This document shows positions 3,514-34,713 of a stretch of 49,490 nt of DNA, piece after piece. The stretch's first letter is position 1; every line of letters begins with the position of its first letter. The DNA lies in NCBI GenBank assembly GCA_965263355.1, contig CBDHHL010000037.1:1-49490 (forward strand). Reading direction: 5' to 3'. Source of the stretch: Leptolyngbyaceae cyanobacterium. GTDB taxonomy: Bacteria > Cyanobacteriota > Cyanobacteriia > Phormidesmidales > Phormidesmidaceae. Made by a program: the position numbers and the translations under genes. Under the pieces are notes generated by a model. It saw only the letters and a list, made by a program, of their open reading frames with translations. It did not search any database and was not told the DNA's origin.

Positions 3514-4691
3514 TAGACATTACCTCCAATCGACTCATTCTCATAAGCTTGCCAAAGCTCTGAGTTAGTCTCACTTAAATGGACAGCAGCATCACCATAA
3601 GTCATAGCGTTATCGCCACTAGTAAGCTTGGCAATCTCAGCGTCCCAAACCTCAGTAGCACTCTTGCCACCGAGATCAATAGGATCAGTCTTGCCACCAG
3701 TCTCACCCAACTTAATAATGGCATCATCGCCAGTTAAGACAGACTCAGCAAACTTATAAACTAAATCAGCAGCAGCCGGATCGAGCTTAAGCATCAAATC
3801 GCCAAGAGCCTTAGTAACAGCAGGCGAATACTTAGTGTGATCATCACCAAGCTCACTAAGCTTAACCCTAATATGGTTACGATTAGCGACTGACTCAATC
3901 TTCTCCATACGATCAGCAAGAGCCTTATTATCGCTAAGAAGCTTAGCAATTTCAGGATGCTGCTCGGCCAGAGTAGCTAATTCCTTATCTTCCTCGGAAG
4001 TAGCTTCCTCTGCCTCTTCTTCGGTCTCTTCCTCTTCCACCTCATCCTCGGTAGAATTATCCTCTTCGCTGGCATCATTTACCAGCTTAAGAAGATCATC
4101 ATCCGAAGTCTTATCAGTGAAAGTAATACCTAACTTCTTTGCAAGCTTCTCCAAAAGCTCACGATCCATACTGGAACCTTCCTCACTTAAAGTTAACGGT
4201 TGTATACCTTTCAAAAACGGTCTATTAGTTAATGCACCTCCTAAAAGGACATCATTAAACACTATCTTAGATAACGGATGTTCCCATAAATTAACGAACT
4301 CAGGACTGAAATAGCGATATTCTCTACTCTTGACAGACTTAGCTGCTGCTTCTGTTAAATTAACTAATAACCATAAACCATCTTTACCTCTATTTGCAGC
4401 CTTCTCGATCCAGCCAGCAGCTTTTCCTACTGTATGATCATAATTAATATCTAAGTCTTGGCCTCGAATACCTGTATTAACTTGCTCAGTGTAATGCTGT
4501 ACCCTAGCCTCATCGACATGAATTTTCCCATGCCTAGGATGCTTATAGTTTCCAAGCGGGAAAGCCTGTAACCAAATCCTAGTATCATCAACCCATTCAG
4601 CTAAATTAGCTTCATCAGTTAAATCAACCAGATAATGGACTGAAACAGTCTCAGTATCCGATAATTTGACTATCTCATCGTGAGTTACCAC
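3513..4691 (-). CDS. Mu gpI-like prohead protease with C-terminal scaffold
   Basis: INYDH...AAGWI, EYRYFSPEF and ALTNRPFL motifs; acidic helical C-terminal half. Confidence 0.9.
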   Translation of the reverse strand: MVTHDEIVKLSDTETVSVHYLVDLTDEANLAEWVDDTRIWLQAFPLGNYKHPRHGKIHVDEARVQHYTEQVNTGIRGQDLDINYDHTVGKAAGWIEKAANRGKDGLWLLVNLTEAAAKSVKSREYRYFSPEFVNLWEHPLSKIVFNDVLLGGALTNRPFLKGIQPLTLSEEGSSMDRELLEKLAKKLGITFTDKTSDDDLLKLVNDASEEDNSTEDEVEEEETEEEAEEATSEEDKELATLAEQHPEIAKLLSDNKALADRMEKIESVANRNHIRVKLSELGDDHTKYSPAVTKALGDLMLKLDPAAADLVYKFAESVLTGDDAIIKLGETGGKTDPIDLGGKSATEVWDAEIAKLTSGDNAMTYGDAAVHLSETNSELWQAYENESIGGNV

Positions 4692-17181: not shown

Positions 17182-17255
17182 GGGCGTATAGCTCAGTTGG
17201 TTAGAGCACGGCACTCATAATGCCTAGGTCCAGGGTTCAAGTCCCTGTGCGCCCA
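17182..17255 (+). tRNA. tRNA with CAT anticodon; probably Ile2 (lysidine, reads ATA) rather than Met
   Basis: Cloverleaf GGGCGTA/TGCGCCC, loop CTCATAA, TTCAAGT T-loop; G3-C70 and C4-G69 rather than the Met-type C3-G70; no encoded CCA. Confidence 0.9.
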
Positions 17256-17257
17256 CA

Positions 17258-17721: not shown

Positions 17722-17803
17722 GCCCCGTTGGCGGAATTGGCATACGCAGTTGACTTAAAATCAACGGTCGAAAGACATATGGGTTCGAGTCCCATACGGG
17801 GTA
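17722..17803 (+). tRNA. tRNA-Leu (anticodon TAA)
   Basis: GCCCCGT/ACGGGGT acceptor, GTTGA-CTTAAAA-TCAAC, long variable arm, TTCGAGT T-loop. Confidence 0.93.
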
Positions 17804-17805
17804 CT

Positions 17806-18853: not shown

Positions 18854-18987
18854 ACCACAAGCAACATCCACCGTTTAGCGAAAGAGTTTCGTCCGCCTAT
18901 TAGGTTGGGAACTCGGTAGGTCAAATGCCTACTCTGCTGGCCCTGTGGAGCCTAGTCGGCGGCCGGAACTATTTTTCTGAAAAGGTG

Positions 18988-19015
18988 TTGCGCTCTAGGA
19001 TAATTCTGCTAGAGT
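18988..19015 (+). promoter_or_regulatory. Promoter P8
   Basis: TTGCGC-16-TAGAGT with extended TGn. Confidence 0.55.
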
Positions 19016-19050
19016 GCTCTAAAGCAAATCAACCTAAGAGAGGTTAATAA

Positions 19051-20006: not shown

Positions 20007-20316
20007 AGCTGCTAAATGCAGAACTTGTAAGTATGATGGCGAATTAATTATAAGTCAGCCTAGTATTTCGCCTTCGACTAGGGAGCCTGTAGACTTAGCG
20101 GTTTATGAATGTAGAAATGAATTGTGTCTAGATTATCAATGGCGTTGGATTGTTCAATCGGATGAAGAGGGTAATGTTCCCGAAAGAGATCATGGCCCTA
20201 GAGGTGTGGATAAAGATTTCCCACGCCTAAGTAGTGAAGCTTTATCTAAGGGTAGAGCTGTAGTAGAAGAAGCAATAGGAAAAGAACACAATAGAGACGA
20301 GGAAAATAATGGCTAG
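19993..20316 (+). CDS. Zinc-ribbon protein
   Basis: CRTC...CRNELC. Confidence 0.7.
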   Translation: MKIHEAAKCRTCKYDGELIISQPSISPSTREPVDLAVYECRNELCLDYQWRWIVQSDEEGNVPERDHGPRGVDKDFPRLSSEALSKGRAVVEEAIGKEHNRDEENNG

Positions 20317-20563
20317 TATGGACGCACTTAAGGACACGCTGGATAACGAGCTTGTTTATACGGCTGTGTTTATTGATTGTGATGAGGATGAGGGTCGATA
20401 CGATTCTATTCTTAAGGCTTTGGGTATTGAGCGGGATGACGTTATCGATGAAAAGTCTCCCCTCATTTATACTCATGAGGATTTGCCTACTAATGGATCT
20501 GTTACGATTCAGTATCGGGCCGGTAAGCCTGAGGTTGAATCTGATTCAGATGAAGAAGAGTAA
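20309..20563 (+). CDS. Acidic hypothetical protein
   Basis: 84 aa, GAGG SD. Confidence 0.75.
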   Translation: MASMDALKDTLDNELVYTAVFIDCDEDEGRYDSILKALGIERDDVIDEKSPLIYTHEDLPTNGSVTIQYRAGKPEVESDSDEEE

Positions 20564-20622
20564 TACATAAATCATTTAAAAGTATCTAAAACATTAAAAG
20601 CCAACACTTAATAATTAACTTT

Positions 20623-20661
20623 GGGAAGATCCACCTGCTAATACTAGGGGTGGATTTTCTC
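20623..20661 (+). terminator. Intrinsic terminator-like hairpin
   Basis: GGGAAGATCCACC/GGTGGATTTTCTC. Confidence 0.6.
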
Positions 20662-20716
20662 ATGTCATTTAAATACTTAGCCATGCTAACCTTCCTAAGT
20701 TACCCGAAGGTAACCC

Positions 20717-20745
20717 TTGCCAAACCTTTGCCAATGGTCTATAGT
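20717..20745 (+). promoter_or_regulatory. Promoter P9 for the structured RNA
   Basis: TTGCCA-17-TATAGT; the predicted start G20753 is the first base of stem 1. Confidence 0.7.
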
Positions 20746-20752
20746 GGTGAAT

Positions 20753-21112
20753 GTAAGCAAATGGAGCAATTCCTCTAGCTTCCGGTGGATTTGCTTACCA
20801 CTGCGGCGGCGGTGAAAAGAATAGGGGTGGAGAGTTGTTCTCGAACTTTAAGCTTAGACCCTCCCCTTTGGTTAGGCTAAAGTTAAGGGCTCTCTGCCCC
20901 TATTCTATCTTTCTTTAAAGGTTTGATTACACCGAACCACAATTAAATAGAGTGAGCTAATCACACTAGCTTAATCCATAAGACCGGTAGGTAGCTTTCG
21001 TCAGCCATACTTACCATCGCCCTGGTGTAATCAATCGGCAGGACCTTATCTAATTGTTAGTTACTGTAAACGCCCGTTTCCAGCTAACAAAAGGATAGGG
21101 TCCTGCTTTTTT
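20753..21112 (+). ncRNA. Unknown ~360-nt multi-domain structured RNA ending in a U-tract terminator
   Basis: Five consecutive stem domains with G-U pairs; no convincing ORF. Confidence 0.75.
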
Positions 21113-21128
21113 CTATTTAAGGAGAACT

Positions 21129-22439
21129 ATGTCAGATTTACCAGAAGACTTTGATCATGTTAAACCAGATGGAAGATTAGCTATATTTGGTTTCGCTGTA
21201 GCTATCAGTGTAGTGGTTTTAGCAGCTTTAATATTTGACCCTAGTGGCACTCCACCCACAGGGCCGCCCATCACGGTCCCTCCCGAGATCGAGCTAGGTA
21301 GTCTCGACAACCCTGCTGGCATGGCCTCATGGTTTGATTCTGACGGTCTGACAGCAAGCGAGATAGAGCTAGGGTGGGGCGCCGAACCGTATGGCGCATT
21401 TCATAATCCAGATTATACTCAGCCGATAAATCCGGTGAGTAATGGATCACACCCACAGGGGCAGTTTAGAATTATATGTGCTCCATCTCATTTCTCATTT
21501 GATGATCCAGTAATATTTCCTAATGATCCTGGCGCTTCACATATGCATATGTACTTTGGTAATAGCGCTGTGAATGCAGATACTACAGAGGTGGATATAC
21601 TTACTAATACTGGTGGATCTACTTGTCAGTCTAGTCTGTTAAATCGTAGTGGCTATTGGGTACCTACTATGTTTAGTGGTGGGAAGGGAGCTGACAGACA
21701 AATAGTTTTACCAAAGGTTATTACCCTTTACTATAAGAGTCATAAGCCTGAATCAGTACAACCTTTTGTAAATGGCACTCAGTTTATAGCCGGCAATATT
21801 CATCCTGATAATGGTACGCCTAGAGAGAGTTTTACTCCTGGCGAGTACTTGCATTGGGGTTGTTATATTAATGGCTCGACTAGAGGTAGTAGTTGGTCTG
21901 GTATTATTCCAGGTACTAGAGGTACTACACCTTGTGCCGATAATGAAGACATTCAATTAACTATACAATTCCCACAATGCTTAGCAGTAGATGAGAATGG
22001 GCCAGTCTTACGGTCTGACAATCATCAAGATCATGCGTTCATCCTTTATAACTTTGATGGTAACTACGGAATACAGAAGGCTAATTGTCCTAGTACTCAT
22101 CCGTATAGGACGATGCAAATTAGTTACCTTATAAGGTTCCCTAACTTAGGAGTCGAAGAGGTTAAGCGTTGGAGACTTTCATCCGACTTTGGTTATGAGA
22201 ATGATATAGTTGATTTCCCTGGCGGATCTGCACACGCTGATTGGTTTGCTGGATGGAATGATAATGCTCAACGAGCTTGGATAGATGGTTGTGTTAATGG
22301 CGACTTAGGCTCTTTCAATTGTTCATTAGGACAGACTGGCGAGAATGGTACAGGCTTACGATTCAATCCAATTGAGGGAGAAAGGTTAAAGAACATGGAA
22401 TACATTGGCCCCTATTTAGTGGATGATCCTACGTCATGA
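21129..22439 (+). CDS. Membrane-anchored DUF1996 domain protein
   Basis: Transmembrane helix; DDPVIFP..PGASHMHMYFGN, NRSGYWVP and HADWFAGW motifs; AAGGAG SD. Confidence 0.88.
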   Translation: MSDLPEDFDHVKPDGRLAIFGFAVAISVVVLAALIFDPSGTPPTGPPITVPPEIELGSLDNPAGMASWFDSDGLTASEIELGWGAEPYGAFHNPDYTQPINPVSNGSHPQGQFRIICAPSHFSFDDPVIFPNDPGASHMHMYFGNSAVNADTTEVDILTNTGGSTCQSSLLNRSGYWVPTMFSGGKGADRQIVLPKVITLYYKSHKPESVQPFVNGTQFIAGNIHPDNGTPRESFTPGEYLHWGCYINGSTRGSSWSGIIPGTRGTTPCADNEDIQLTIQFPQCLAVDENGPVLRSDNHQDHAFILYNFDGNYGIQKANCPSTHPYRTMQISYLIRFPNLGVEEVKRWRLSSDFGYENDIVDFPGGSAHADWFAGWNDNAQRAWIDGCVNGDLGSFNCSLGQTGENGTGLRFNPIEGERLKNMEYIGPYLVDDPTS

Positions 22440-22723
22440 CAGATGGATTTTTTGAGTTAGCTAAAAATAAAATAACCGACACCCCAGAAGATATGGTCTG
22501 GTCTTCTGCTACATTTGGAGATTCACTTAATACCATCTTCGTGTATGACAGTGAGGAACCTAAGCTTAGACATCAATCTTTTAAATATATTTTAAAGCTT
22601 ATCAACTTCTTAGATTGGTCACTTAGGGAAATAGAAGAATGGATAATGGAAGATCCAACATCTTTTGTTATGATTAAAGATGAGATTGGGGATTGGAAGA
22701 AGGTTGATTTAGAGAATGAGTGA
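22436..22723 (+). CDS. Hypothetical protein
   Basis: ATGA coupling. Confidence 0.7.
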   Translation: MTDGFFELAKNKITDTPEDMVWSSATFGDSLNTIFVYDSEEPKLRHQSFKYILKLINFLDWSLREIEEWIMEDPTSFVMIKDEIGDWKKVDLENE

Positions 22724-22955
22724 AGATTACATACCTCAAGTATTTTTTAACGATCCAGAAAAAGATGCTGAGCATAACTTCTATATGATTCCAGATACCA
22801 AATCTGGTTATGCAGCTATATTTGTTAGGTGGGATCCAGATGATTACGATTGGTATATAGGTATCATATCAGATGAGTATCCGCCTAAACCATTTATTAA
22901 ACTAGAGGAAGTAACTAGCTTTGTTCTAGATATAGAGGTAATTGATGAGAGCTGA
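22716..22955 (+). CDS. Acidic hypothetical protein
   Basis: Overlap coupling. Confidence 0.7.
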   Translation: MSEDYIPQVFFNDPEKDAEHNFYMIPDTKSGYAAIFVRWDPDDYDWYIGIISDEYPPKPFIKLEEVTSFVLDIEVIDES

Positions 22956-23187
22956 TACAGATAGATTATATGATCAAATAGACGAGACGCTTAGAGATGT
23001 AGCTCACATCTCACTACTCTATTTTGTTTGGACTAAGCGTAGAAATGTTCGTAAGTCATGGGAGCAAATAGCTTATGATGTTCGTTCCACTACTGACATA
23101 GCTGTATCTGGTGAATGGTTACGTACTAGATTTAGTGGAATAGAAAACTATACTACACCTACAGCATGGAAAGATGATCAAATATAA
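22942..23187 (+). CDS. HTH-like DNA-binding protein
   Basis: SWEQIAYDV...VSGEWLRTRF. Confidence 0.6.
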   Translation: MMRADTDRLYDQIDETLRDVAHISLLYFVWTKRRNVRKSWEQIAYDVRSTTDIAVSGEWLRTRFSGIENYTTPTAWKDDQI

Positions 23188-23390
23188 TGTGGGCTAAACT
23201 GCAAGGTGCTTATCATTGGGGATCTAGGAAGCAGCTTAGAGATGTTGAATTAACTTTTATAGGCGATGAACTTGTCATAGAAGTTAAGAAGTCTAGACAA
23301 GAAGGTAATATATACACAGAAGTTAGATTGGAGCTTACGGCTAGTGAAGTAATTAAATTCTTATTAAGTACAGAGCGCCACGTTGCATGA
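23187..23390 (+). CDS. Hypothetical protein
   Basis: TAATG and ATGA coupling. Confidence 0.65.
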   Translation: MWAKLQGAYHWGSRKQLRDVELTFIGDELVIEVKKSRQEGNIYTEVRLELTASEVIKFLLSTERHVA

Positions 23391-24835
23391 ACCAATTAGT
23401 TAAGACTCCTTTATGGGAACATCAGCGAGATACATTAGAGTATTTTGCTGAGCAAGAACAAGTCTTATGTGCTTGGGATATGGGTACTGGTAAGACTTTA
23501 TTTGCCATAGAGCGAGACGCTAGAATAAGAGAGACAGTTAGAGTAGGTAGAAATAAGGATAGTGGAAGAAAGTTTAGGACTCTAGTTGTAGCTCCATTAT
23601 CTACACATAAACAATGGAAGAATGCATTTGAATCAGAGTTACCAGGAATTAAAGTAAAGCAAATCAATCCTAAGGATCGTACTGCTTTCTTAATGGGTGA
23701 CTATGATGTATGGGTCATGCATTATGAAGCTGTTCGTATTATGTGGGTCGAACTTAAAGCGCATATGTTTGACCATGGTATATTTGATGAGTGTCATAGG
23801 CTTAAGAATAGAAAGACTCAACAGACACAAGCGGTAAAGAAATTAAAGATTCCTTTACTTACTGATATGTCTGGATCCCCTGTAACCGATAGACCACAGG
23901 ACATATGGTCTATATTACATCACCTTAAGCCTAAAGAATATACTAGCTATTGGACGTTCTTCCATAACATGACTAATAGCGAGAGGCCATGGATTAATAC
24001 AAAGGGAGGTAAGCGTATGCAAGCTCAGTATTGGGTAACGCATGGACCTTCCGAACGTTGGTTAACTAATGGGCTAGACGATATAGAAGAATACTATTCA
24101 CGCATACTAATAGACCAATGTATAGATTTACCGGAATTAGTACACACAACTATTAATGTTGATCTTACACCTAAGATGCGTAAAGCATATGCTGAAATGC
24201 ATGATGAAATGATTACTTGGGTACGAGAGATGGGTGAAGATGAAGAAGACCATCCGTTAGCTGCACCCGCTATTATATCTAGAATGACTAGATTGCAGCA
24301 GCTTGCAATGGCTACTATAGAATACAATCCTACTACTGAAAAGTATAGGATGGTTGCACCATCTCCTAAATTAGATGCAGTTGTTGAGAGAATAAGAGAC
24401 AATGATGGCGATAAGTTTCTAGTATTCTCCCAATGGAAACACCCTTTACTTTTACTTAGGTCTATGCTTGAAAAGCAAAAGGGATTACCTGCACCTATTA
24501 ACCCTTGCATGTTTACTGGTGATGAGACTGGACCTTTAAGAGAGAACTCTAAGAAACGATTTATAGAGGGTGACTCTAGGGTTATGTTAGCTACTATTGA
24601 TGCGGGCGGCGAAGGTGTTGATGGTTTGCAGCATGTTTGCAACAACGTTATATTCTTAGATAGATCATGGACTCCAACTAAGAATGATCAAGCTATAGCT
24701 CGCTTACGTAGGGGTGGGCAAACTAAACCAGTAAACGTTATTGATGTGGTGTCCACAGGGACAGTGGATATTATACGTAATCAGAAGATCGAACTTAAGA
24801 AGCAATGGGTTATGCAAACCTTAGGAGATATATAA
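23387..24835 (+). CDS. SNF2-family DNA helicase
   Basis: DMGTGKT, DECH, SGSP, GGEGVD, QAIARLRRGGQ. Confidence 0.92.
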   Translation: MNQLVKTPLWEHQRDTLEYFAEQEQVLCAWDMGTGKTLFAIERDARIRETVRVGRNKDSGRKFRTLVVAPLSTHKQWKNAFESELPGIKVKQINPKDRTAFLMGDYDVWVMHYEAVRIMWVELKAHMFDHGIFDECHRLKNRKTQQTQAVKKLKIPLLTDMSGSPVTDRPQDIWSILHHLKPKEYTSYWTFFHNMTNSERPWINTKGGKRMQAQYWVTHGPSERWLTNGLDDIEEYYSRILIDQCIDLPELVHTTINVDLTPKMRKAYAEMHDEMITWVREMGEDEEDHPLAAPAIISRMTRLQQLAMATIEYNPTTEKYRMVAPSPKLDAVVERIRDNDGDKFLVFSQWKHPLLLLRSMLEKQKGLPAPINPCMFTGDETGPLRENSKKRFIEGDSRVMLATIDAGGEGVDGLQHVCNNVIFLDRSWTPTKNDQAIARLRRGGQTKPVNVIDVVSTGTVDIIRNQKIELKKQWVMQTLGDI

Positions 24836-24847
24836 TGAAGAGGAAAT

Positions 24848-25033
24848 GTGTTAGAGTACGCTGTTGAGTATTATGGTGGGCCATTAGATGGTGTAGCTCA
24901 AACTCTAACTGATCTATTTGAAAGTGTTAAAGTACCATATGGAGATGGAAAGTTTGCAATCTACGGATATAATGGATATAGATACAACGACAATGAGGGA
25001 ATAAATGTTCACAAGTACGAATTCCAAGGGTGA
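24848..25033 (+). CDS. Hypothetical protein (GGPLDG motif)
   Basis: YYGGPLDG; GAGG SD. Confidence 0.65.
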   Translation: MLEYAVEYYGGPLDGVAQTLTDLFESVKVPYGDGKFAIYGYNGYRYNDNEGINVHKYEFQG

Positions 25034-26153
25034 ACCTTGCTTCATAATCAGGAACTCTGACAGAGCTTTATTTAAGCGTTGCCGATTCTTGTGGCATTGC
25101 TCATCTAGAAATAGATTGAACTACGGATCTATTGGAGTAACAGAAGCGTTAGAGTTTGGGACAGCTATCCATGCTGGAATGGAAGTTATACATAGCTCGG
25201 TCAATTGGGAAAATCCAATAGACATATTAACTGCTGAGGCTATACTCAAATTCAAAGAGAGTATGGATAAGTGGCGAGAAAGATTAATTAAACTAGATGC
25301 TTTCTTCGGAACTAAGAATGAAGTTGAATGGAATGAGTATGTAGAATTAGGTAAGCAAATGTTAGCTCATTACATCTATTGGGCTGACGTAGAAAATACT
25401 GATTGGATACCTGTTAAAACTGAGATCGAGTTTGAAGTACCCTTACCATTAACTAATGTATTTGAAGATGCTGTATATGATTCAAATTTATTTAGGATGA
25501 AAGATATAGATGGTATACCTAGTTGTTTGGCTTACAGCCATGAACATGGTGATTACTTACCTGTTTATGTTCAGGGTAGGCTTGATGGTTTATTCAAGAA
25601 TTTAGATGATGGAAGTCTTTGGGCTTGGGACCATAAGACCACAGGGCAGATGCCTAATAACTTTGATCACTTGTTATTAGATACTCAAGCCGGTACATAT
25701 TACTGGGCTACACGTCGAATGTTAGGCATGGATGTATCAGGAGTTGTATTCAACTTCTTGCTTAAGGATTACCCTAAGCCACCTGCTATATTAAAGAGTG
25801 GTAAGGTATCTAAGAATAAGGCGCAGCGTACTACTAAGTATTTAATTAGGGAAGCTATAGCAGAACTTGGACTCAATCCATTTGAGTATCAAGACTTCTT
25901 AAATACTTTTGAAGAACCTTCATTCTTCCATAGAGAACCGGTCACTAAAACATCAGATGAGTTAGATCAAATCCAGAATGATTTGGTCATGGAATTCATG
26001 GATATGTATAACGCTAGGATATATACTCATCCTAATATGTTTAACTGTCGTGGATGTAAATTCAAGAAGCCATGCCAAATAAGGCAAGAGGGCGGCGACT
26101 GGTATTGGTACTTAAACAATTCTGGAATGTACGCAGAGAACAACCCTTATTGA
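25005..26153 (+). CDS. PD-(D/E)xK Cas4/RecB-like exonuclease
   Basis: FKRC, FGTAIH, GRLD...DHKT, Q..TY, C-terminal CRGCKFKKPC. Confidence 0.88.
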   Translation: MFTSTNSKGEPCFIIRNSDRALFKRCRFLWHCSSRNRLNYGSIGVTEALEFGTAIHAGMEVIHSSVNWENPIDILTAEAILKFKESMDKWRERLIKLDAFFGTKNEVEWNEYVELGKQMLAHYIYWADVENTDWIPVKTEIEFEVPLPLTNVFEDAVYDSNLFRMKDIDGIPSCLAYSHEHGDYLPVYVQGRLDGLFKNLDDGSLWAWDHKTTGQMPNNFDHLLLDTQAGTYYWATRRMLGMDVSGVVFNFLLKDYPKPPAILKSGKVSKNKAQRTTKYLIREAIAELGLNPFEYQDFLNTFEEPSFFHREPVTKTSDELDQIQNDLVMEFMDMYNARIYTHPNMFNCRGCKFKKPCQIRQEGGDWYWYLNNSGMYAENNPY

Positions 26154-26154
26154 T

Positions 26155-26397
26155 ATGAAACTCAGAGCTATTAGATTAGAGGATTTGCCAAAGAGAAAAC
26201 CTAACTCGATATGCATAATGAACAATCTATGGATATATGAAGTACGTAGATTGATAGTTCCAATACACCCAATGTTTAGACCATGGACATCTATAGAAGA
26301 AGATGCACTAGAACTAATAGAGTTCTTTGGTGATAACTTCTTTTATCAAAGGCTTATGTTAGCTTACTTACCAAGGGATTTGATTAGTGGCAGATGA
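26155..26397 (+). CDS. Hypothetical protein
   Basis: 80 aa, operon packing. Confidence 0.6.
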   Translation: MKLRAIRLEDLPKRKPNSICIMNNLWIYEVRRLIVPIHPMFRPWTSIEEDALELIEFFGDNFFYQRLMLAYLPRDLISGR

Positions 26398-27175
26398 TGA
26401 AGTACTAACATTAGATACAATAAAGTTTGCTGGATTAGAGTTAACTACACCTAGTGCCATTGACTATACTAATACACTTATCTATGGTGACTCTGGTGTA
26501 GGTAAGACTAGGCTTGCAGCTAGTGCAGCTTTAGTAGCTGACTGTGCGCCAGTGTTGCTAATAGATATTGAAAAAGGTGGAACCTCAGCTAGAGGCTTTT
26601 CTAATATCTATACGGTTAGACCAACTAGCTTTACTGAGTTAGCCAACGTTGGTAGAGAGCTTAAAAAGCAACAAACCAATGGAGGCATACAATACAAGAC
26701 TATTATTGTAGACTCTTTAACAGAAGCTCAGCGCTTAGGTACCGATGCTGTCATGGCCAGAACGGTAGAACGTGCTAGAGAAAAAGGTGAGACTAAAGAT
26801 CCTGATCATCCTGATTGGGGAGATTGGACTAAGAGTCATAATACTTTTCGTAGACTTGTAAGAAGTTTCAGGGATTTAGAATGCAATGTCATATTCACTG
26901 CACTAGCACAAGTTGATAATTCTAGGCCATCCAAACCTAAAGCCAAGCCTAAACTTAATGGTGCAATGGCAGATGAGATTGCAGCTTCTTTAGACTTTGT
27001 GTTCTATATGTTCACCCAAACAGATGATGAAGCAAAGGAGGTAAGGCGAGGAATACTAACTAGTTCAACTGAGGATATTATATCAAAAGACAGATCAGGT
27101 AATTTGGATAGAACAATAGCTGATCCAACTTGGGAAATTATATACAACCAGATAATTGGAGATAATAATGAGTGA
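26387..27175 (+). CDS. AAA_24/Sak4-like ATPase (recombinase)
   Basis: IYGDSGVGKT, IIVDSLT, NVIFTAL, KDRSG. Confidence 0.88.
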   Translation: MADDEVLTLDTIKFAGLELTTPSAIDYTNTLIYGDSGVGKTRLAASAALVADCAPVLLIDIEKGGTSARGFSNIYTVRPTSFTELANVGRELKKQQTNGGIQYKTIIVDSLTEAQRLGTDAVMARTVERAREKGETKDPDHPDWGDWTKSHNTFRRLVRSFRDLECNVIFTALAQVDNSRPSKPKAKPKLNGAMADEIAASLDFVFYMFTQTDDEAKEVRRGILTSSTEDIISKDRSGNLDRTIADPTWEIIYNQIIGDNNE

Positions 27176-27665
27176 TGAATCTTTCGTTTTTAATTTAGGT
27201 GAAGTCGAGACTCCCGATTATGATCTTATGCCTAGCGGATGGCGTAAGTTTGTTATCAGTAAGTACAATACCGAAAAGTCTGATGGTACTCCCATTCAAG
27301 TTAATAAGGATGGAGGAAAGTTACCGCAGGGAACCGGTGGTACTAATTGGGAATTCACCGTTATTGATGATGAAAACTACGATGGTCGAAAGGTTTGGGA
27401 AACCTATTGGCATCATGCTAATACTATGGGATTCTGGAAGTCCCTTTATCGAGCAGCCGACGCATTCACCGATGAGGAATTAGAATCTGAGATTGATATC
27501 TTAGAGGAGCGTGACCGAATTGTTGGCTGCGAGTTTTGGGGTCAAGTCGGTATTAAGAAGGGATCCGGTGGATATGATGACCAGAATACCATTAAGAGCT
27601 TTAAGAAGTTAAGCGAGCGTGAAGCTCCGAAGGAGGCTGAATTTAATCCTCTGGATCTTGGTTAA
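27168..27665 (+). CDS. Single-stranded DNA-binding protein (DUF669-like)
   Basis: YDLMPSG..., WEFTV...YDGRKVW, NTIKSF; follows the Sak4-like gene. Confidence 0.75.
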   Translation: MSDESFVFNLGEVETPDYDLMPSGWRKFVISKYNTEKSDGTPIQVNKDGGKLPQGTGGTNWEFTVIDDENYDGRKVWETYWHHANTMGFWKSLYRAADAFTDEELESEIDILEERDRIVGCEFWGQVGIKKGSGGYDDQNTIKSFKKLSEREAPKEAEFNPLDLG

Positions 27666-27679
27666 TTAATCTGTAAATG

Positions 27680-27721
27680 GCAGGCGGTCCCTCACACTAT
27701 TAAAGTGTGGGGGGCCCTTGC
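27680..27721 (+). terminator. Intergenic hairpin
   Basis: GGTCCCTCACACT-ATTAA-AGTGTGGGGGGCC. Confidence 0.55.
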
Positions 27722-27742
27722 ATCTACCCACTGAAAGTTAAT

Positions 27743-29941
27743 ATGTCTGATGATAAAAGAATAGCGTTTATTCGGTGGATAGTTGGAACGCATGAGGACT
27801 CTTATCTAGGACTTGCTTCTAGGGGTGGAGAATCTAATGCATGGACAGAAGGTATATTTAATCCTAGAACCGAATTACCTAAGATTGAAAACTTTCTTAG
27901 ACAGAATGAATTAGTATCAGACCTTTACTTTTGTCCTACTCCATTAGATGCACCTAGAAGAACCAAAGATAATATAACGAGATCAAACGTTCTATGGTCT
28001 GACTTAGATAGTTGTGAGCCAGATCAATTACTTGTACCGCCTACACTTGTTACTGAAACTTCACCTGGACATTATCAATGCTTCTGGAGATTAGAAGAAT
28101 CAGTACATGCAGATGAAGCAGAGCTACTTAATAAACGGATAGCTTATAGACATTCAGATCAAGGAGCCGATAGAAGCGGTTGGGATCTAAGCCAATTACT
28201 ACGTATACCTAATACTAGAAACTTTAAGTATCCAGAAACTCCAGTAGTCAGACTACATACTGCTAACCAAAAAGCTATATACTCAATACAAGAATTAAAA
28301 GATAAGTATGGCAAGGTAGATGTAACTCAAGAAGCGAGTGTTAAAGATATCCCTCTCCCTGTGGACCTACCTAATAGGACCGCTGATAGCATTTTAAATA
28401 CATTATCAGCACAGTCTAATCCTAGGATAAGGGAGCTATTCGATAACCCACCTATAACAGATAGAAGTAGAGCGCTATGGGAATTGATATTACTTCTTCT
28501 TGAGGCTGAGTTATCTATAGAAGAAACCTTCATTGTAGCTAGAGACTCTAAGTGCAATAAGTTTGGATCTAATCCGCATCACTTATGGAAAGATATACTT
28601 AGGGCTAAAGCTAAAATTGAGCGAGATGAAGCTAATAAGAATAGCATAGCCGATATACCTGATACAGATTTAATCATACCAGACGGATCTATATTAACAG
28701 AAGAAGAATGGGAAATAGCTAATAGTTATAGATCGCTAGTAGATGAATACTATGAATGGGCTAGTAAAGCTACAGATGCTGCACCACAATACCATGTAGC
28801 TACAGGTATAATTATACTCTCTTCATTACTTTCTGGTTCGTTGAGATTGTATACTCAATATGGCGAGATAAAGCCCAACCTGTGGGTAATGATAATGGGT
28901 GACACAACTACATCTAGGAAATCTACATCTATGGAAATGGGTACAGATATCTTAGATGATATAAATCCAGAGTGCTTATTAGCAACTGACGGAACCATAG
29001 AAGGTTTATTAGCTGCTATGACTAATCGCTCTAGTAAAGTATCTCTATTCCACAGGGATGAGGTATCAGGTTTACTACTAGCGATGGATAAAAAGGATTA
29101 CAATGCGGGAATGCTAGAAGCTTTCACTAAGTTGTATGATGGTAAGCGTATGCGCCGCATCCTTAGGAAAGAGCAAATAGAAGTTAGAGATCCTGTCTTT
29201 GTTATGTTAACTGGTGGCACTAGGACAGGTATATTTAGTGCGTTAAGTTCAGCACATATATCATCTGGCTTTGCGCCTAGATTTGTTTATATATCTGCTG
29301 AACAAGATCCTTCTAGAAGAAGAGGTCTAGGACCTAGGACTATAAATAGCAATGAGAAACGAATCAAACTAGTAAGTAAATTTGAAGACGTATATCTTCA
29401 ATACAATGACACCGGTAGCACAGATCCATTTGCTTTGCCTAAGAAGGTTGAGGTATCATTAACCGAAGAGGCTTGGCAAGCATACAATCATTATGATTTT
29501 ATGTTAGTTGATCTAGCAGATAAATCTAGTATACCTGAATTCTTAACTCCTATGATGGCTAGATTATCTATGTCTGGACTTAAGATCGCTATGCTATTAG
29601 CTGCTAGTAGAGGTGATGAAAAGATAGTTGTAGATGTACCTGATATAATTAAAGCGTTCTCATATGTAGATTCATGGAAAGCATATTCATTTGAAGTAGT
29701 AGTTAATGCTGGTCGATCGAATCAAGAAACTCAGATAACAGAATGCTATACAACAATAGCTAACGCTGGATCCTCCGGGCTTAGCAGAGCACAAGTAATG
29801 CAGATACATAGGTTGACTAGCAGAAATGCCGATCTAGTATTTGGTACACTAGAGCAACGTAACCTGATTGTCTCTAATAGACCTAATGGTAAGATTGTAT
29901 ATTATGCTGTCAGTAAATTAAACAAGGATGAGTTTGTATGA
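27743..29941 (+). CDS. RepB-type primase fused to a DUF3987-like helicase/NTPase domain
   Basis: LWSDLD, ETSPGHYQCFW, LLRIPNTRNFK; RKSTS, DEV and SGFAPRF in the C-terminal half. Confidence 0.85.
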   Translation: MSDDKRIAFIRWIVGTHEDSYLGLASRGGESNAWTEGIFNPRTELPKIENFLRQNELVSDLYFCPTPLDAPRRTKDNITRSNVLWSDLDSCEPDQLLVPPTLVTETSPGHYQCFWRLEESVHADEAELLNKRIAYRHSDQGADRSGWDLSQLLRIPNTRNFKYPETPVVRLHTANQKAIYSIQELKDKYGKVDVTQEASVKDIPLPVDLPNRTADSILNTLSAQSNPRIRELFDNPPITDRSRALWELILLLLEAELSIEETFIVARDSKCNKFGSNPHHLWKDILRAKAKIERDEANKNSIADIPDTDLIIPDGSILTEEEWEIANSYRSLVDEYYEWASKATDAAPQYHVATGIIILSSLLSGSLRLYTQYGEIKPNLWVMIMGDTTTSRKSTSMEMGTDILDDINPECLLATDGTIEGLLAAMTNRSSKVSLFHRDEVSGLLLAMDKKDYNAGMLEAFTKLYDGKRMRRILRKEQIEVRDPVFVMLTGGTRTGIFSALSSAHISSGFAPRFVYISAEQDPSRRRGLGPRTINSNEKRIKLVSKFEDVYLQYNDTGSTDPFALPKKVEVSLTEEAWQAYNHYDFMLVDLADKSSIPEFLTPMMARLSMSGLKIAMLLAASRGDEKIVVDVPDIIKAFSYVDSWKAYSFEVVVNAGRSNQETQITECYTTIANAGSSGLSRAQVMQIHRLTSRNADLVFGTLEQRNLIVSNRPNGKIVYYAVSKLNKDEFV

Positions 29942-30144
29942 GCTTACCGCCCGGTCGACATCAACAGCATCAATTCACAGATGAGCAAGTTAAAGAGATG
30001 AGAGAGTTATATGAAGGGACTAAAAACTTGCCACGTAATGATGTAAATAGGTGGACGTATCGTAGACTAGCTGAGAAATTTGGAGCCTCACATCAAACAA
30101 TTTCTAAGATAGTCAATTACCATAGATACGAATGGGTACAGTAA
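29938..30144 (+). CDS. Helix-turn-helix protein
   Basis: TYRRLAEKFGASHQTISKIV. Confidence 0.8.
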   Translation: MSLPPGRHQQHQFTDEQVKEMRELYEGTKNLPRNDVNRWTYRRLAEKFGASHQTISKIVNYHRYEWVQ

Positions 30145-30287
30145 TGGATGAGATATTGAAGATGGTAGGTTACACATGGGTATTTAGAACTTTAGTACTC
30201 TATATAATAAAAGGTTTAATACTTATATTAGAGCGCTTAACGGCTGAGGAATCTATGCGTAAAGAAATGCAAGAATATGCTTCTTGA
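30144..30287 (+). CDS. Small hydrophobic protein (47 aa, not in the track)
   Basis: TAATG coupling; fills the gap before the polymerase. Confidence 0.45.
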   Translation: MDEILKMVGYTWVFRTLVLYIIKGLILILERLTAEESMRKEMQEYAS

Positions 30288-32676
30288 AGATTATATAAAA
30301 GATGTAGAGCGTAAAGAAAGACCTAGACGTCATCCATTAGCTAAATGTGAAGAATGTGAATGGAACATAGAGGCAGCGGGATTTGCTGACGCAACTGGGC
30401 CACAGGGGGCAGAGCTTGTATTTATAGGCGAGTCACCTGGAAAGCATGAAGCGAAAACAGGTATTCCTTTTACTGGCCCTACTGGTCACCTCTTATATAT
30501 GGTTATGGATAGGTACGACCTCAAGCGCTCGGATATAAGGCTCACCAACGCCGTAGCCTGCCATCCGCCATATGAAGAGGGTATGACCTCTACCGAGCCG
30601 CCTAGAGGGGTCATAGAGGCTTGTAGGCCCCGTCTAATGGCAGAGATCGAGCAAGCTGATACAGTATTGTTGATGGGCAATACGGCTAGGCGCTCTGTCA
30701 CCGAAGATTATAAGACTGGCATTATGAAGGGTAGACAAGAACCTCCTATCTTCCAAGATGATGGTCCTACTTTATTATCTACTATTCATCCTGCTGCATG
30801 TCTAAGGAATCCTGACAGCTTCCCTTCATTTCTAAGAGATATAAAGAAGCTAGTTAGACTAAGGTCAGACGGTCCAGATAATGTATATGTTAATTATGAG
30901 CCACCTAGGTACGCATGGTACGACACTGTACCAGAAGCCGAAATGGTTCTTAAGAAACTTATGGACAGTGCAGATTTACTAGCTTGTGATATAGAAACTG
31001 GCGTTGAAAAAGACAGAGACTTTACTCACCCAAATGTATGGCTATCTATAGGTTTTGCTTATGCGCCTAACAAAGCTGTAGTTTTAGGTGAGAGATGTCT
31101 AAGGAATCATAAGATACAACGGATGGTAGGAGAGTTAATTGCAGCAAAACGAACCATTTGGCATAATGGAAAATACGACCTGCAAGTCTTATTGCGCCTT
31201 GGCGTCGTTCGACCAGAGTCATTCAGTATATACGCTGACACCATGCTCGCCTCATATGTGTTGGATGAAAGACCTGGAAACCATGGCCTTAAGAACTTAT
31301 CATCCGAGCACCTTGGAGCCCCAGATTATGAGCATGAAGTTCAGAAGTACTTATCAAGAGGACAAACCTCCTATGCTAATGTACCTAGGAAAATCCTTTA
31401 TAAGTACAACGCGTATGACTGTGTTTTCACATGGGCTCTATGGGAGCGACTTAGTGAGGAAATGGATGATACGGGTAGGGAACTTCATGACTACTTGTGT
31501 GAACTGGCTACGGAGCTTATTTACATAGAGTTAGATGGAGTATCTATTAATGAAGACTATTTAGACGAACTCACCATAGACTATACGAAACAATTAGATC
31601 AGATAGATGAAGACTTATCTAGGTGGGTAGAGAATCCTAGATCCTGGCAACAAGTAGCGGCAGCACTTAAAGAGCTTGGATTACCGCATGAGACCACAGG
31701 GGCAGATGAGCTACAAAGACTGAAAGAAAGAGTGTCTGTTGAATCCGAGTCTTATGATTTCTTATCACAGATATTACACCAACGTAGAACTCAAAAGCTA
31801 TATGGCACTTATGTCAAAGGTACTAGAGAGCGCTTAATTGATGGCAGAGTTTACCCTACCTATCTCTTACATGGAACAACTTCTGGCCGACTATCTGCTA
31901 GAAATCCGAATATCCATAATGTTCCAAGAGACTCTAAGATCAAACGTTTATTCGTACCTAGAACGGCAGACCATACCTTCATACAATGTGACTATGGTCA
32001 AGCCGAACTTAGAACTATCGCCATACTCGCTCAAGATCCCTATTTAAAGGAAGTTTTTGAAGATGCTACTAGAGACATTCATGGTGAATTAGCCGATGTA
32101 TTATTTGGTGCCGGTAAGTGGGACAAGGAGGACAGAGTTAGAGCTAAGTCTTATGTGTTTGGATCTATATATGGCCTTTCCCCATACTCGATCGCTCTTG
32201 ATTATGGAATCACTGAAATGCAAGCCTTTAGGGAGCAATCAGCTTTCTTCCGAATGATTCCCGATACTATGAAATGGCGCACTAGGACAGTTAAAAGTGT
32301 GCTTAAGCATGGCAATAGCTTAGAAACTATATTCGGTAGGAGGCGTAGGTTTATGCTTATAACTCCAGACAATAAGCATAAACTTGAGAAAGAGGTATTA
32401 GCATTCTTACCACAGAGCACAGCTAGCGATTTAACCACGAATTCACTCATGCGTATTAGGCGTGAGTTCGGTACTGGTGCTAATGTTCCTAGTATCAAGA
32501 TTACCGTTCATGACTCCATAGTTGTAGAGTGTCATAATGATATTAGAGAGGATGTTGGTCGATTTGTAGCTAAGACTATGAGAGATACTGCAAGAGATTT
32601 AATAGGAGATTACGTACCCTTCACCACTGATATAGAATATGGTGACTCATGGGGTACTTTACAGGACGCAGCATAA
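30277..32676 (+). CDS. polA: Family A DNA polymerase with N-terminal family-4 uracil-DNA glycosylase-like domain
   Basis: UDG: CEEC, IGESPG, PFTG, TNAVAC, HPAA. Exonuclease: DIET, HNGKYD, YNAYD. Polymerase: DYGQAELR, KSYVFG..YG, VHDS. Confidence 0.95.
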   Translation: MLLEDYIKDVERKERPRRHPLAKCEECEWNIEAAGFADATGPQGAELVFIGESPGKHEAKTGIPFTGPTGHLLYMVMDRYDLKRSDIRLTNAVACHPPYEEGMTSTEPPRGVIEACRPRLMAEIEQADTVLLMGNTARRSVTEDYKTGIMKGRQEPPIFQDDGPTLLSTIHPAACLRNPDSFPSFLRDIKKLVRLRSDGPDNVYVNYEPPRYAWYDTVPEAEMVLKKLMDSADLLACDIETGVEKDRDFTHPNVWLSIGFAYAPNKAVVLGERCLRNHKIQRMVGELIAAKRTIWHNGKYDLQVLLRLGVVRPESFSIYADTMLASYVLDERPGNHGLKNLSSEHLGAPDYEHEVQKYLSRGQTSYANVPRKILYKYNAYDCVFTWALWERLSEEMDDTGRELHDYLCELATELIYIELDGVSINEDYLDELTIDYTKQLDQIDEDLSRWVENPRSWQQVAAALKELGLPHETTGADELQRLKERVSVESESYDFLSQILHQRRTQKLYGTYVKGTRERLIDGRVYPTYLLHGTTSGRLSARNPNIHNVPRDSKIKRLFVPRTADHTFIQCDYGQAELRTIAILAQDPYLKEVFEDATRDIHGELADVLFGAGKWDKEDRVRAKSYVFGSIYGLSPYSIALDYGITEMQAFREQSAFFRMIPDTMKWRTRTVKSVLKHGNSLETIFGRRRRFMLITPDNKHKLEKEVLAFLPQSTASDLTTNSLMRIRREFGTGANVPSIKITVHDSIVVECHNDIREDVGRFVAKTMRDTARDLIGDYVPFTTDIEYGDSWGTLQDAA

Positions 32677-32921
32677 TGACAGACAAAGTACAATGGGAAA
32701 CTAAAAGGTCTATCTTAGAAGCCTTAGGTATAGATCATGAAACTCGTAATCTAGAGACTGTTACCATAGAGTTATCTACGAACGAACCCATAACAGTATT
32801 GATACAAGAACTTATATATAGGGGAGGGGAACTTGATCTAGACTTCTCTACATATGAGTTAGTACCATTAGATCCTATAACAGGAAAACCCACTATAGAA
32901 AGTGATATAAATGAAGAGTAG
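32676..32921 (+). CDS. Hypothetical protein
   Basis: MTDKVQW start with TAATG coupling. Confidence 0.65.
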   Translation: MTDKVQWETKRSILEALGIDHETRNLETVTIELSTNEPITVLIQELIYRGGELDLDFSTYELVPLDPITGKPTIESDINEE

Positions 32922-33315
32922 AATATCAGTCATCATTTCAATGTTAATATTAGCGGGATTGCTAACTGTAGCAAGCCCACAACCCGCTAGTGCGGCCTAT
33001 GAATGTGCTTCATGGGGTTGCGCCGAAACGGTTCATTATTACCCTGCTGGAGGATCTGGTAAATATCGCATTGACGACAAATGGGTCGACGCCGCATGGT
33101 GGATGGACCAAGACGACGTAACGGCCTGTACGACAATGTATGTTAGGCGTAAGTCTAACGGTTGGTGGTATTATGTAGGGTCAGACTGTGGCGGCGAACC
33201 TGATACTGTCTATTTCGATTTCAACTTTGAGATTAATTCAGTGCAAATCCGGTCGAGGGATTGGCGTGGACGTTGGCGCTATAAGACCATTGATGGTTAT
33301 TCATACGCACCATAG
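32911..33315 (+). CDS. Secreted Trp/Tyr/Cys-rich protein
   Basis: Sec signal peptide ending PQPASA-A. Confidence 0.75.
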   Translation: MKSRISVIISMLILAGLLTVASPQPASAAYECASWGCAETVHYYPAGGSGKYRIDDKWVDAAWWMDQDDVTACTTMYVRRKSNGWWYYVGSDCGGEPDTVYFDFNFEINSVQIRSRDWRGRWRYKTIDGYSYAP

Positions 33316-33362
33316 TTGATATATGTTCCTCCCCCTGTGGTCATCTATAGGGGGCGGTTCAT

Positions 33363-33536
33363 ATGCCAACTATGAATACTTATGCAACTAATATAGGTGA
33401 TACATACTCTAAAGTGATTTGTAGTTACGATAATGGTCTTACTGTAACTGTAGAGTATAACCGTAAAATAGATAGTATAGAATTACATGGTGTGTTGATG
33501 CGTATAAAAGAATTTGTTGAAGGGTCATCGACATGA
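33363..33536 (+). CDS. Hypothetical protein (57 aa, not in the track)
   Basis: ATGA coupling to the resolvase gene. Confidence 0.45.
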   Translation: MPTMNTYATNIGDTYSKVICSYDNGLTVTVEYNRKIDSIELHGVLMRIKEFVEGSST

Positions 33537-34063
33537 AAATTATGTGCTTTGATCCAGGTGGAACTACTGGTGTAGTAGTTTTAGATACCGATCACCCAAC
33601 TAGGTTTCGTGGTTATCAATTAGGGCCGGGCGAACATCATATAGCTTTGTGGACAGTTTTAACTGCTAATGCTCCAAAAAAGGTAGTCTGTGAATCATTT
33701 GATTATAGGGTCGCTACAACCGATGGTGATTGGTCACACTCGGACCACAGAGGTACAGTTGATAGGGCTGTGCCTGGTATTAACCTTATGTCTCGCAATT
33801 ATATTGGTGTTATTGAACTCTACTGCCAAATGAGGCATATAGAATTAACAATGCAAAAGCCTAGCGAAGCTGTATCTAAGAACCAAGGTAATATGTTCTT
33901 TAATAACGATAAGCTTAAATCACTAGGCGTATACGTAGCAGACGCACCGCACTATAATGATGCGATGCGCCATATGCTAGTTTATTTGGTTTTTAAATTA
34001 AAGCAGAAAGCTTATCTCAAGATGCTTAGGGCAAATCGACAGCTTCACCTGACTTATAGTTAG
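33533..34063 (+). CDS. RuvC-like Holliday junction resolvase
   Basis: IMCFDPGGTTG, VVCESF, HYNDAMRH. Confidence 0.8.
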   Translation: MKIMCFDPGGTTGVVVLDTDHPTRFRGYQLGPGEHHIALWTVLTANAPKKVVCESFDYRVATTDGDWSHSDHRGTVDRAVPGINLMSRNYIGVIELYCQMRHIELTMQKPSEAVSKNQGNMFFNNDKLKSLGVYVADAPHYNDAMRHMLVYLVFKLKQKAYLKMLRANRQLHLTYS

Positions 34064-34316
34064 GTGTAGTAGGATAGCCATTCAACCATCCATAAAGAGG
34101 ATTTCTAGTGCGAGCTAGATAGTCTACTATTTCCCTCCACAGAAGAGTGAATAGCATAACTAAGAAGCCTGCTAGTATAGGAGTTAATCCCTCTAAGTCA
34201 GTAATAAATTCGGTATCAAATCCTTGATTGATTAGATACGTAGTGAGCCAAGTAATTAATACGCCTGCTACTAACTGAGCACCAGTACGAATTCTACCAA
34301 TGATAAAATCATTCAT
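34026..34316 (-). CDS. Holin-like membrane protein
   Basis: Two transmembrane helices; GRIRT...WLNGYPTTPNY resembles actinophage holins. Confidence 0.65.
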   Translation of the reverse strand: MNDFIIGRIRTGAQLVAGVLITWLTTYLINQGFDTEFITDLEGLTPILAGFLVMLFTLLWREIVDYLARTRNPLYGWLNGYPTTPNYKSGEAVDLP

Positions 34317-34713
34317 TACTAAAACCTCCATTAGCCTTACTAGCCGCTGACTCTAGACTTGCTATACGTGCTTCTAACTTTGCCACAATAAGTTCTGCTG
34401 CTTGAGCACGTTCTGTCATGTCGTGTAAAGTTTTCTGATAATTCCTCATATTCTCAAATGCTTCATCTCTACAAGCTCTAAGCTCTTTATGCATTTCATC
34501 TAATTCTTCTTTTAATCTATCTATATCTGCATCTGTTTCATCTCTATATTCTTTCAAATCTTGCTTTGCTAATTCAGCGGTGGCTCTAGCTTGGGCCATC
34601 GCTTGTTCATATGCTCTATTAGTAACTCTAAGATAAGTAAAAGCTATAGCTACTATTAACGCTATCCTAGATCCATCATCTACAATTATTCTAAGTAGTT
34701 CATCAATTTCCAT
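34309..34713 (-). CDS. Membrane protein with coiled coil (lysis cassette)
   Basis: One transmembrane helix plus a long heptad region. Confidence 0.7.
   Translation of the reverse strand: MEIDELLRIIVDDGSRIALIVAIAFTYLRVTNRAYEQAMAQARATAELAKQDLKEYRDETDADIDRLKEELDEMHKELRACRDEAFENMRNYQKTLHDMTERAQAAELIVAKLEARIASLESAASKANGGFSNE

Follow-up and report, generated by a model that had tools for sequence, protein, structure and literature searches.

What fills the longest stretch of a phage contig in which no gene can be called, directly ahead of its replication genes? The stretch in question is the 565-nucleotide (nt) gap at positions 20564-21128 of contig CBDHHL010000037.1 (assembly GCA_965263355.1, filed as a Leptolyngbyaceae cyanobacterium). 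This is a 49.5-kb siphovirus-like phage contig, whose whole 49,490 nt were analysed and are referred to here as the window. The gap lies between an open reading frame (ORF) of 84 amino acids (aa) and a gene encoding a DUF1996 protein, exceeds every other gap between ORFs that a greedy ORF call gives for the contig, and contains ORFs of at most 42 codons. We found that 363 nt of it (20753-21115) form a stable five-domain fold on the + strand, behind a promoter that is conserved in the nearest relative and in a slot that this relative fills with a different noncoding RNA array. The explanation that we favour, and to which as a whole we give about an even chance, is that the segment would be expressed as a separately transcribed, stable structured RNA acting in trans, with a terminator that limits read-through into the genes downstream.

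The + strand of 20753-21115 folds with a minimum free energy (MFE) of -139.7 kcal/mol (z -8.67), and none of 100 dinucleotide shuffles folded as well. When the MFE is corrected for GC content, the RNA region ranks first on the + strand among 407 sliding 363-nt windows of the contig. The - strand of the same segment reaches -119.8 kcal/mol (z -4.21), which leaves the + strand more stable by 20 kcal/mol. An earlier note on this DNA had described five consecutive domains (D1 to D5), and all of them are present where it had placed them (Table 1). Judging from the per-domain z-scores, D3, D4 and D5 carry the fold signal, with D1 and D2 being weak alone.

The same note had read the non-Watson-Crick pairs of the helices as G-U pairs on the + strand, and hence as a sign of selection at the RNA level. 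In the + strand fold, 15 of the 124 pairs are G-U, and the symmetric internal loops contain five oppositions, none of them A-C. On the - strand, the fold has nine G-U pairs, and six of the 14 such oppositions are A-C. A duplex DNA palindrome decaying by transitions should show the two kinds equally. Because there are 15 G-U pairs and no A-C oppositions, we take the + strand to be the folded strand, and the asymmetry supports both the G-U claim and the assignment of the feature to the RNA level. It points to selection that would act on a + strand transcript, a single-stranded DNA form of the + strand being the less likely source. A DNA-level element, whose inverted repeats would serve as an origin of replication, as a site of single-strand initiation or as a hotspot of recombination, appears highly improbable to us. 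The position of the segment directly before the replication module would suit such an element, as would the - strand's own excess over shuffles (z -4.2) and the fact that the segment is a recombination junction between phage lineages. However, the count of 15 G-U against no A-C is unexpected for a symmetric duplex element, there are no iterons except the two repeats at the promoter, and the GC content of the gap is not depressed relative to its neighbours (0.41-0.43). Moreover, the turning points of the cumulative GC skew lie elsewhere, near 12 kb and 34 kb, and a promoter and a U-tract frame the repeats exactly.

Several details of the fold bear on its possible functions. D3 consists of a 19-pair basal stem, a 4-nt bulge (CUCG), an upper stem and an all-pyrimidine loop, CUCCCCUUU; the bulge contains part of a CGAA tetranucleotide at 20842-45. 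The closing stem of D4 comprises 12 pairs, namely an 11-bp perfect repeat and one G-U pair, and a second CGAA (20933-36) sits at the boundary between this stem and the junction. D5 is a hairpin (21038-21106) with a GC-rich base, GCAGGACC/GGUCCUGC, and is followed directly by six U residues at 21107-21112. It therefore shows the GC-rich stem directly followed by a U-tract by which intrinsic terminators are recognised, in a hairpin of unusual length (69 nt) that is very stable alone and whose MFE structure makes up 0.45 of the ensemble. On this model, transcription would probably terminate at D5. The terminator-like hairpin that precedes the promoter would in turn close the upstream operon. As a separate observation, a motif reading GGGGTGGA or GGTGGATTT recurs at 20640-20654, 20784-20795 and 20817-20831 (direct-repeat families D1 and D3 of the repeat analysis), that is, in this upstream hairpin, in the 3' arm of the D1 hairpin and in the 5' arm of the D3 hairpin. 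The recurrence could be due to chance or could represent a shared protein-binding word.

Table 1. Features in and around the 565-nt gap, with positions in the window; folds and energies (MFE, kcal/mol) refer to the + strand unless noted.
Feature	Position	Strand	Details
84-aa ORF, left border of the slot	20309..20563	+	44% identity (E 5e-19) to positions 66-317 of metagenome contig L150
Terminator-like hairpin, inverted repeat I4	20622..20662	+	MFE -23.7, z -6.7; followed by UUUUCUC
Sigma-70-type promoter	20717..20745	+	-35 TTGCCA 20717-22, 17-nt spacer, -10 TATAGT 20740-45
D1, hairpin, GTAAGCAAAT/ATTTGCTTAC	20753..20798 (arms 20753-62/20789-98)	+	inverted repeat I6, 10/10 complementary; MFE -13.3, z -2.2
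D2, short GC hairpin, CACUGC/GCGGUG	20799..20814	+	MFE -8.0, z -2.8
D3, long hairpin	20818..20906	+	MFE -43.8, z -5.2; - strand -33.9, z -3.5
D3 variant A>T	20858		bulge base in + strand fold
D3 variant A>G	20874		U-A to U-G in + strand fold
D3 variant G>A	20875		U-G to U-A in + strand fold
D3 variant G>T	20887		G.G mismatch to G-U in + strand fold
D4, three-way junction with two inner hairpins	20923..21034	+	inverted repeat I5, 11/11; MFE -32.0, z -5.0
D5, long hairpin and U6, likely intrinsic terminator	21038..21112	+	inverted repeat I1; MFE -35.2, z -7.2
Shine-Dalgarno AAGGAG (21119-24) and DUF1996 gene (21129-22439)	21119..22439	+	Pfam DUF1996, E 1.9e-30

Natural variation in the fold is confined to one domain. 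A second contig from the same sample (depth about 6), compared over 1201 nt, differs from the window at four positions, all of them in D3 and within 30 nt, and the other contig from the sample is identical to the window and may be its source. The two contigs come from two DNA sequencing runs, the only runs listed with the stretch; no RNA run is among them. The differences mark D3 as a hotspot of variation. All four keep or improve pairing on the + strand (Table 1), and the variant D3 is slightly more stable than the original on this strand (-43.8 to -44.6 kcal/mol) and less stable on the - strand (-33.9 to -30.1 kcal/mol). We considered an assembly artefact caused by inversion and rejected it, since the loop is unchanged and the altered bases are not the complements of their partners. 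The variants are thus consistent with constraint at the RNA level, for which they are weak evidence.

The promoter claimed in the earlier note, TTGCCA-17-TATAGT, was recovered by our promoter scan as its top + strand site, with 10 of 12 consensus positions, and TTGCCA-N16-18-TATAGT has a single match in the window. It lies in an 11-nt direct repeat, AACCYTTGCCA, that is present twice at 20712-20733 (repeat family D5 of the repeat analysis). D1 starts 8 nt downstream of the -10 box, from the position of which we infer a transcription start at about 20753. The promoter is also the best-conserved nucleotide stretch between the window and its nearest relative, a 10.7-kb metagenome contig (L150) whose helicase is 59% identical to that of the window. 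Both blastn and nhmmer aligned positions 342-379 of L150 with the promoter region at 34 of 38 identical nt, against 64-79% identity for the coding matches, and the promoter of L150 reads TTGCCAA-N4-TTGCCAAT-N3-CTATAGTGGTGAATGT. The conservation spans both copies of the 11-nt repeat with their TTGCCA, the -10 box and the first transcribed bases. In IMG/VR, a first promoter pattern gave no matches. A second gave five loci, which represent two unrelated sequences of differing GC content and were read as chance.

The layout of L150 shows what else can stand behind this promoter. There, a homologue of the 84-aa ORF is followed by the near-identical promoter, a 790-nt noncoding hairpin array and a TROVE/Ro60 gene (1111-2640, 509 aa). 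The noncoding region folds at -281.5 kcal/mol on the + strand (z -15) and at -250.9 kcal/mol on the - strand. The array (318-1110) matches the YrlA family of Y RNAs at 44.8 bits (E 2e-8), with a recognisable T-arm (GGTTCGATTCC) and D-arm (TAGCTCAGTTTGGTAGAGC). It is unannotated; by eye, it comprises four hairpin modules with a common basal stem (UCUAUCRAC/GUYGAUAGA), one of which carries the tRNA-like YrlA core of 44.8 bits, and another hairpin whose loop is rich in C (UUCCCCCC), and it lacks the GNCGAAN0-1G motif. Nothing can be aligned between the promoter and the helicase of the two contigs. Because the 84-aa ORF and the promoter are common to both and are followed in L150 by a different RNA and a different accessory gene, we regard the segment as an exchangeable slot. 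The window and L150 share an arrangement of promoter, noncoding RNA array and accessory gene whose contents have been exchanged. The occupancy of the slot by Y RNAs and Ro60 in the nearest relative is new and was not foreseen by the earlier note. More distant relatives are without the 84-aa ORF, and the long gap was absent from all eight distant loci examined, where the largest real gap is 235 nt long and holds a tRNA.

Loci of isolated phages with Ro60 genes provide a scale for the L150 match. Sub-threshold YrlA matches of 31-52 bits were found in noncoding DNA beside Ro60 in four of the five isolated phages examined, upstream of the gene in three and downstream in one, and Thermus phage phiLo is without such a match. 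Since phage Ro60 loci give 31-52 bits, the L150 score is typical of phage Y RNAs. Among these phages, Xanthomonas phage MET23-P3 (43 kb) has a 700-nt unannotated gap (positions 762-1464 of locus L318) upstream of a Ro60 homologue labelled 'hypothetical protein', with two YrlA matches in the gap (52.3 and 37.5 bits). In Streptomyces phage BRock, a match to the manA RNA (positions 3579-3742 of locus L315; 49.7 bits against a gathering score of 55.2) sits among tRNA genes downstream of the phage Ro60 gene.

It could therefore be asked whether the window RNA is itself a divergent Y-RNA-like array in a phage without Ro60, with D3 and D4, each an end-paired stem with CGAA at a stem/loop boundary, docking host Ro60/Rsr or PNPase in the way of phage Yrl RNAs. 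The likeness to Y RNAs that accompany Ro60/Rsr (YrlA, YrlB, RF02553; phiLo Yrl1 and Yrl2) begins with position, as the window RNA occupies the same slot behind the same promoter as the L150 array. It extends to the layout, also seen in isolated Ro60 phages, in which end-paired hairpins follow one another over several hundred noncoding nt that immediately precede an accessory gene read from the same strand, and to one long hairpin with a pyrimidine-rich loop. D3, a long hairpin whose loop consists of pyrimidines only, has a shape noted for YrlB and Yrn2. Both CGAA sites belong to the 5' strand, one where D3 bulges and the other where the closing stem of D4 reaches the junction. For Y RNAs, PMC4201824 gives a GNCGAAN0-1G motif near the 5' end, and PMC12135203 the looser criterion of a CGAA in the internal loop. 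In the latter study, CGAA motifs in noncoding DNA ahead of Ro60 led to Yrl1 and Yrl2 of Thermus phage phiLo, and both RNAs bound host PNPase in gel-shift assays (PMC12135203).

Most of the more specific comparisons go against this assignment. The full GNCGAAN0-1G motif is absent from the window RNA, as it is from the L150 array, and two CGAA in 363 nt are what composition predicts (1.2 expected). Searching 20500-21200 at thresholds as loose as E 10 gave no match to YrlA or Y_RNA. Neither a GTTCGA/TTCGA T-loop nor a TAGCTCA...GGTAGAGC D-arm occurs in 20753-21115, whereas both are present in L150, and ARAGORN found no tRNA-like gene in the RNA region. There is no TROVE domain in the 63 ORFs of the window that were scanned, and the adjacent gene encodes instead a DUF1996 protein with a predicted membrane anchor. 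Unlike the four modules of the L150 array, whose common basal stem was read by eye, the modules of the window RNA share no such stem, and past the promoter the sequence shows no similarity to the L150 array. With covariance models of D3 and D4, the hairpin matches in L150 and five phage Ro60 loci were weak and symmetrical between the strands. By every defining feature tested, the window RNA does not appear to be a Y RNA, and we retain a Y-RNA-like array as a minor and very unlikely alternative.

Nor does the window RNA belong to any other described family. Across the whole window, the only Rfam matches at the gathering score are two tRNAs outside the RNA region; within 20500-21200, searches at E up to 10 returned seven matches, all far below the gathering score and none credible. 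No Rfam model of a riboswitch, T-box, ribosomal-protein leader or antitermination element matched the RNA region. The earlier note had expected neither a known family nor a hallmark of tRNA or transfer-messenger RNA (tmRNA), and both expectations held, the latter by ARAGORN. For comparative searches, profile-based scans supplied 149 loci through DUF1996 and 160 through the helicase. Searches of these 309 loci with the gap by blastn and nhmmer gave one match, the 38-nt promoter of L150. The gap and the surrounding 7-kb stretch have no nucleotide match in 50,697 phage records, and, in a search of IMG/VR for close relatives, neither single-protein scans with the DUF1996 protein and with the helicase nor an exact-pattern scan with 28 nt of D3 gave a match. 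The covariance models of D3 and D4 were run on the window and 199 of the 309 loci, leaving out L001-L080, L124-L149 and the duplicates L231, L242, L248 and L257, and returned self matches alone. With filters off, the models gave only weak hairpin matches, on both strands, in L150 and the five phage Ro60 loci.

In the explanation that we favour, the promoter at 20717-20745 would give rise to an RNA of about 360 nt from about position 20753, with no credible coding frame, that would fold co-transcriptionally into D1 to D5. D5 and its U-tract, 22 nt before the DUF1996 start codon, would serve as an intrinsic terminator. Most transcripts would then stop there and yield a compact RNA with a hairpin closing each end, presumably nuclease-resistant and stable, and a fraction that reads through D5 would feed DUF1996 and the replication operon. 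By analogy with Y RNAs and with an early-promoter RNA of cluster A mycobacteriophages, the RNA would most likely act in trans, as a protein-binding scaffold or decoy in early infection. The mycobacteriophage RNA may be its closest functional analogue: in phages L5, D29 and StarStuff, a noncoding transcript that is both abundant and stable comes from the early promoter Pleft, where about 500 bp are transcribed (PMC5712189). Like it, the window RNA would be promoter-proximal, several hundred nt long and without an ORF of note, at the head of an early gene block. The expression of the mycobacteriophage RNA has been measured, whereas that of the window RNA is predicted, and a terminator abutting the ribosome-binding site of the next gene is a feature of the window locus by comparison.

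This terminator also suggests a different role, in which the RNA would work in cis as a leader. D1 to D4 would set how often polymerase stops at D5, and hence the expression of DUF1996 and the 13-kb replication block, possibly by modifying the polymerase as HK022 put RNA does, as an attenuator that senses a ligand or protein, or as a binding site for a phage antiterminator. We consider this unlikely. In its favour, the interval between D5 and the DUF1996 start codon leaves no room for another promoter, and the genes at 21129-27665 are packed as one operon. On the + strand of 21100-34400, the promoter scan listed sites of 9/12 or 10/12 only, some of which were mapped against ORFs; the two 10/12 sites (24946-24973 and 25219-25246) lie inside ORFs of the greedy call, and no obvious operon promoter appears. 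In addition, 11 nt of the unpaired D4 junction (20939-49) are complementary at 10 of 11 positions to the 5' arm of D5 (21047-57; inverted repeat I7). However, D5 is very stable alone, the I7 pairing would spare its GC-rich base, and no alternative pairing that opens this base stands out. I7 may itself be due to chance, as equally long complementarities (I9) involve untranscribed DNA. The Rfam leader-type models gave no match, as described above, and the same slot in L150 holds trans-acting Y RNAs and no leader. We also rejected a general DUF1996 leader, as DUF1996 genes elsewhere are without a long leader (median upstream gap of 36 nt in 125 loci). HK022 put is about 70 nt long with two stem-loops. 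The window RNA resembles putL and putR in position alone, as a structured RNA that follows an early promoter and precedes a terminator which polymerase has to pass if the genes behind it are to be expressed. It differs from them in its 360 nt and five domains, and none of the tests made here points to polymerase modification.

The hairpins could also lack a function of their own and serve only processing or stability, as RNase III-type sites and protective ends in the 5' untranslated part of the mRNA that encodes DUF1996 and the replication proteins, perhaps as a remnant of cassette exchange. D3 and D5 form long near-perfect duplexes with small internal loops, the shape that RNase III sites generally have between the early genes of phage T7. 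Like the T7 hairpins, those of the window are long irregular duplexes between early operon genes, and D5 is comparable in shape, with lower and upper stems split by small internal loops. Moreover, the segment from the promoter to the helicase differs between the window and L150, so that the phage backbone can evidently do without this content. Against this, five domains over 360 nt, including a three-way junction, exceed what end protection needs, the four D3 variants keep pairing, and the L150 slot carries functional RNAs. The window also differs from the T7 arrangement in that a single promoter precedes the whole cluster of five domains, which finishes in a predicted U-tract terminator. We find this account distinctly unlikely.

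Several points weigh against a separately transcribed, trans-acting RNA. Long near-perfect hairpins are equally typical of terminators, RNase III sites and DNA inverted repeats, and the - strand, as noted above, also beats its own shuffles. A pattern-based terminator scan did not list D5, which we take to reflect a misfit between its branched stem and apical loop and the simple stem-loop pattern of that scan. The region has no excess of promoter-like sites (46, with 59.7 expected), so that the promoter scan alone is weak evidence. The D3 variants come from one low-depth contig and include no double compensatory change, and by a rough estimate changes of this kind would fit the pairing through chance alone in about one case in ten. 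Finally, there is no homologue of the window RNA in the searched sets, so that the structure is based on one sequence and four micro-variants.

A bolder form of the trans-acting RNA, which we put forward as decidedly doubtful, is that the window holds a new multi-domain class of phage RNA in a Y-RNA slot without Ro60. Exchangeable RNA cassettes would, in this lineage of phages, be driven by the conserved promoter, with its 11-nt tandem repeat as a possible operator. The cassette of the window phage would be a 360-nt scaffold that captures host proteins of RNA decay or RNA repair such as PNPase or Rsr, or that uses the C-rich loops of D1 and D3 to sequester ribosome-binding sites. Because all four strain differences fall in D3, this domain would be evolving fast under structural constraint.

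The portal, Mu-like protease, tail tube, tape measure and Dit genes are all on the - strand, and a long + strand block contains small early genes, two tRNAs and the replication module (SNF2 helicase, PD-(D/E)XK exonuclease, Sak4-like ATPase, primase and a UDG-PolA fusion). Downstream of the RNA, our annotation places DUF1996 and then the helicase, exonuclease, Sak4-like, primase and PolA genes, in agreement with the DUF1996 and replication genes named in the earlier note. The closest relatives of the DUF1996 protein (P0002-P0009) are 43-53% identical to it, and those of the helicase (P0122 and P0123) 60-61%. The DUF1996 gene is the first of a tightly packed operon, in which the ORFs at 21129-27665 overlap or are at most 12 nt apart. 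Its product has an N-terminal hydrophobic stretch that we read as a membrane anchor. DUF1996 relatives occur in 69 IMG/VR viral contigs (loci L081-L149) and in many metagenome-assembled genomes of Acidimicrobiia, Saccharibacteria, Myxococcota and Burkholderiales; among the listed papers that mention DUF1996, most deal with fungi and none brings up a phage role. On the other side of the slot, the 84-aa ORF is without a Pfam or PHROG family. A full HMMER search of 1.84 billion representative proteins found just two further relatives (P0243 and P0244), which are not in IMG/VR, and a word-based search returned the query alone.

Elsewhere in the window, the DNA polymerase A gene (30277-32676) encodes an N-terminal domain of the uracil-DNA-glycosylase superfamily (PF03167, E 3.3e-24) before the 3'-5' exonuclease and polymerase domains. 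The two tRNAs, tRNA-Met(CAT) at 17182-17256 and tRNA-Leu(TAA) at 17722-17804, lie amid the small early genes. A second ORF-poor gap (18854-19050, 197 nt) folds on the + strand with an MFE of -70.0 kcal/mol (z -4.0; none of 200 shuffles as stable) and overlaps a 40-codon ORF at 18925-19047. ORFs on the - strand (2-775 and 47113-49488) run off both ends of the contig, which may represent a phage genome that is circularly permuted or nearly complete; contig X1, which covers the stretch, has 49,337 nt.

Phages rarely encode structured RNAs that exceed small regulatory RNAs in size, and most of those that they do encode are unexplained; Y RNAs and the mycobacteriophage early RNA are examples. The locus described here is a compact case with sharp borders, which, as one sequence, remains a candidate. 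The comparison of two contigs suggests that an early promoter can dock swapped cassettes of a noncoding RNA and an accessory gene, with Y RNAs and Ro60 in L150 and the five-domain RNA and a DUF1996 protein in the window. Should the RNA prove to be expressed and stable, it would open a new way into the question of how phages use RNA scaffolds or decoys against host RNA metabolism, and its locus would offer a natural test bed for a strong terminator placed before a replication operon.

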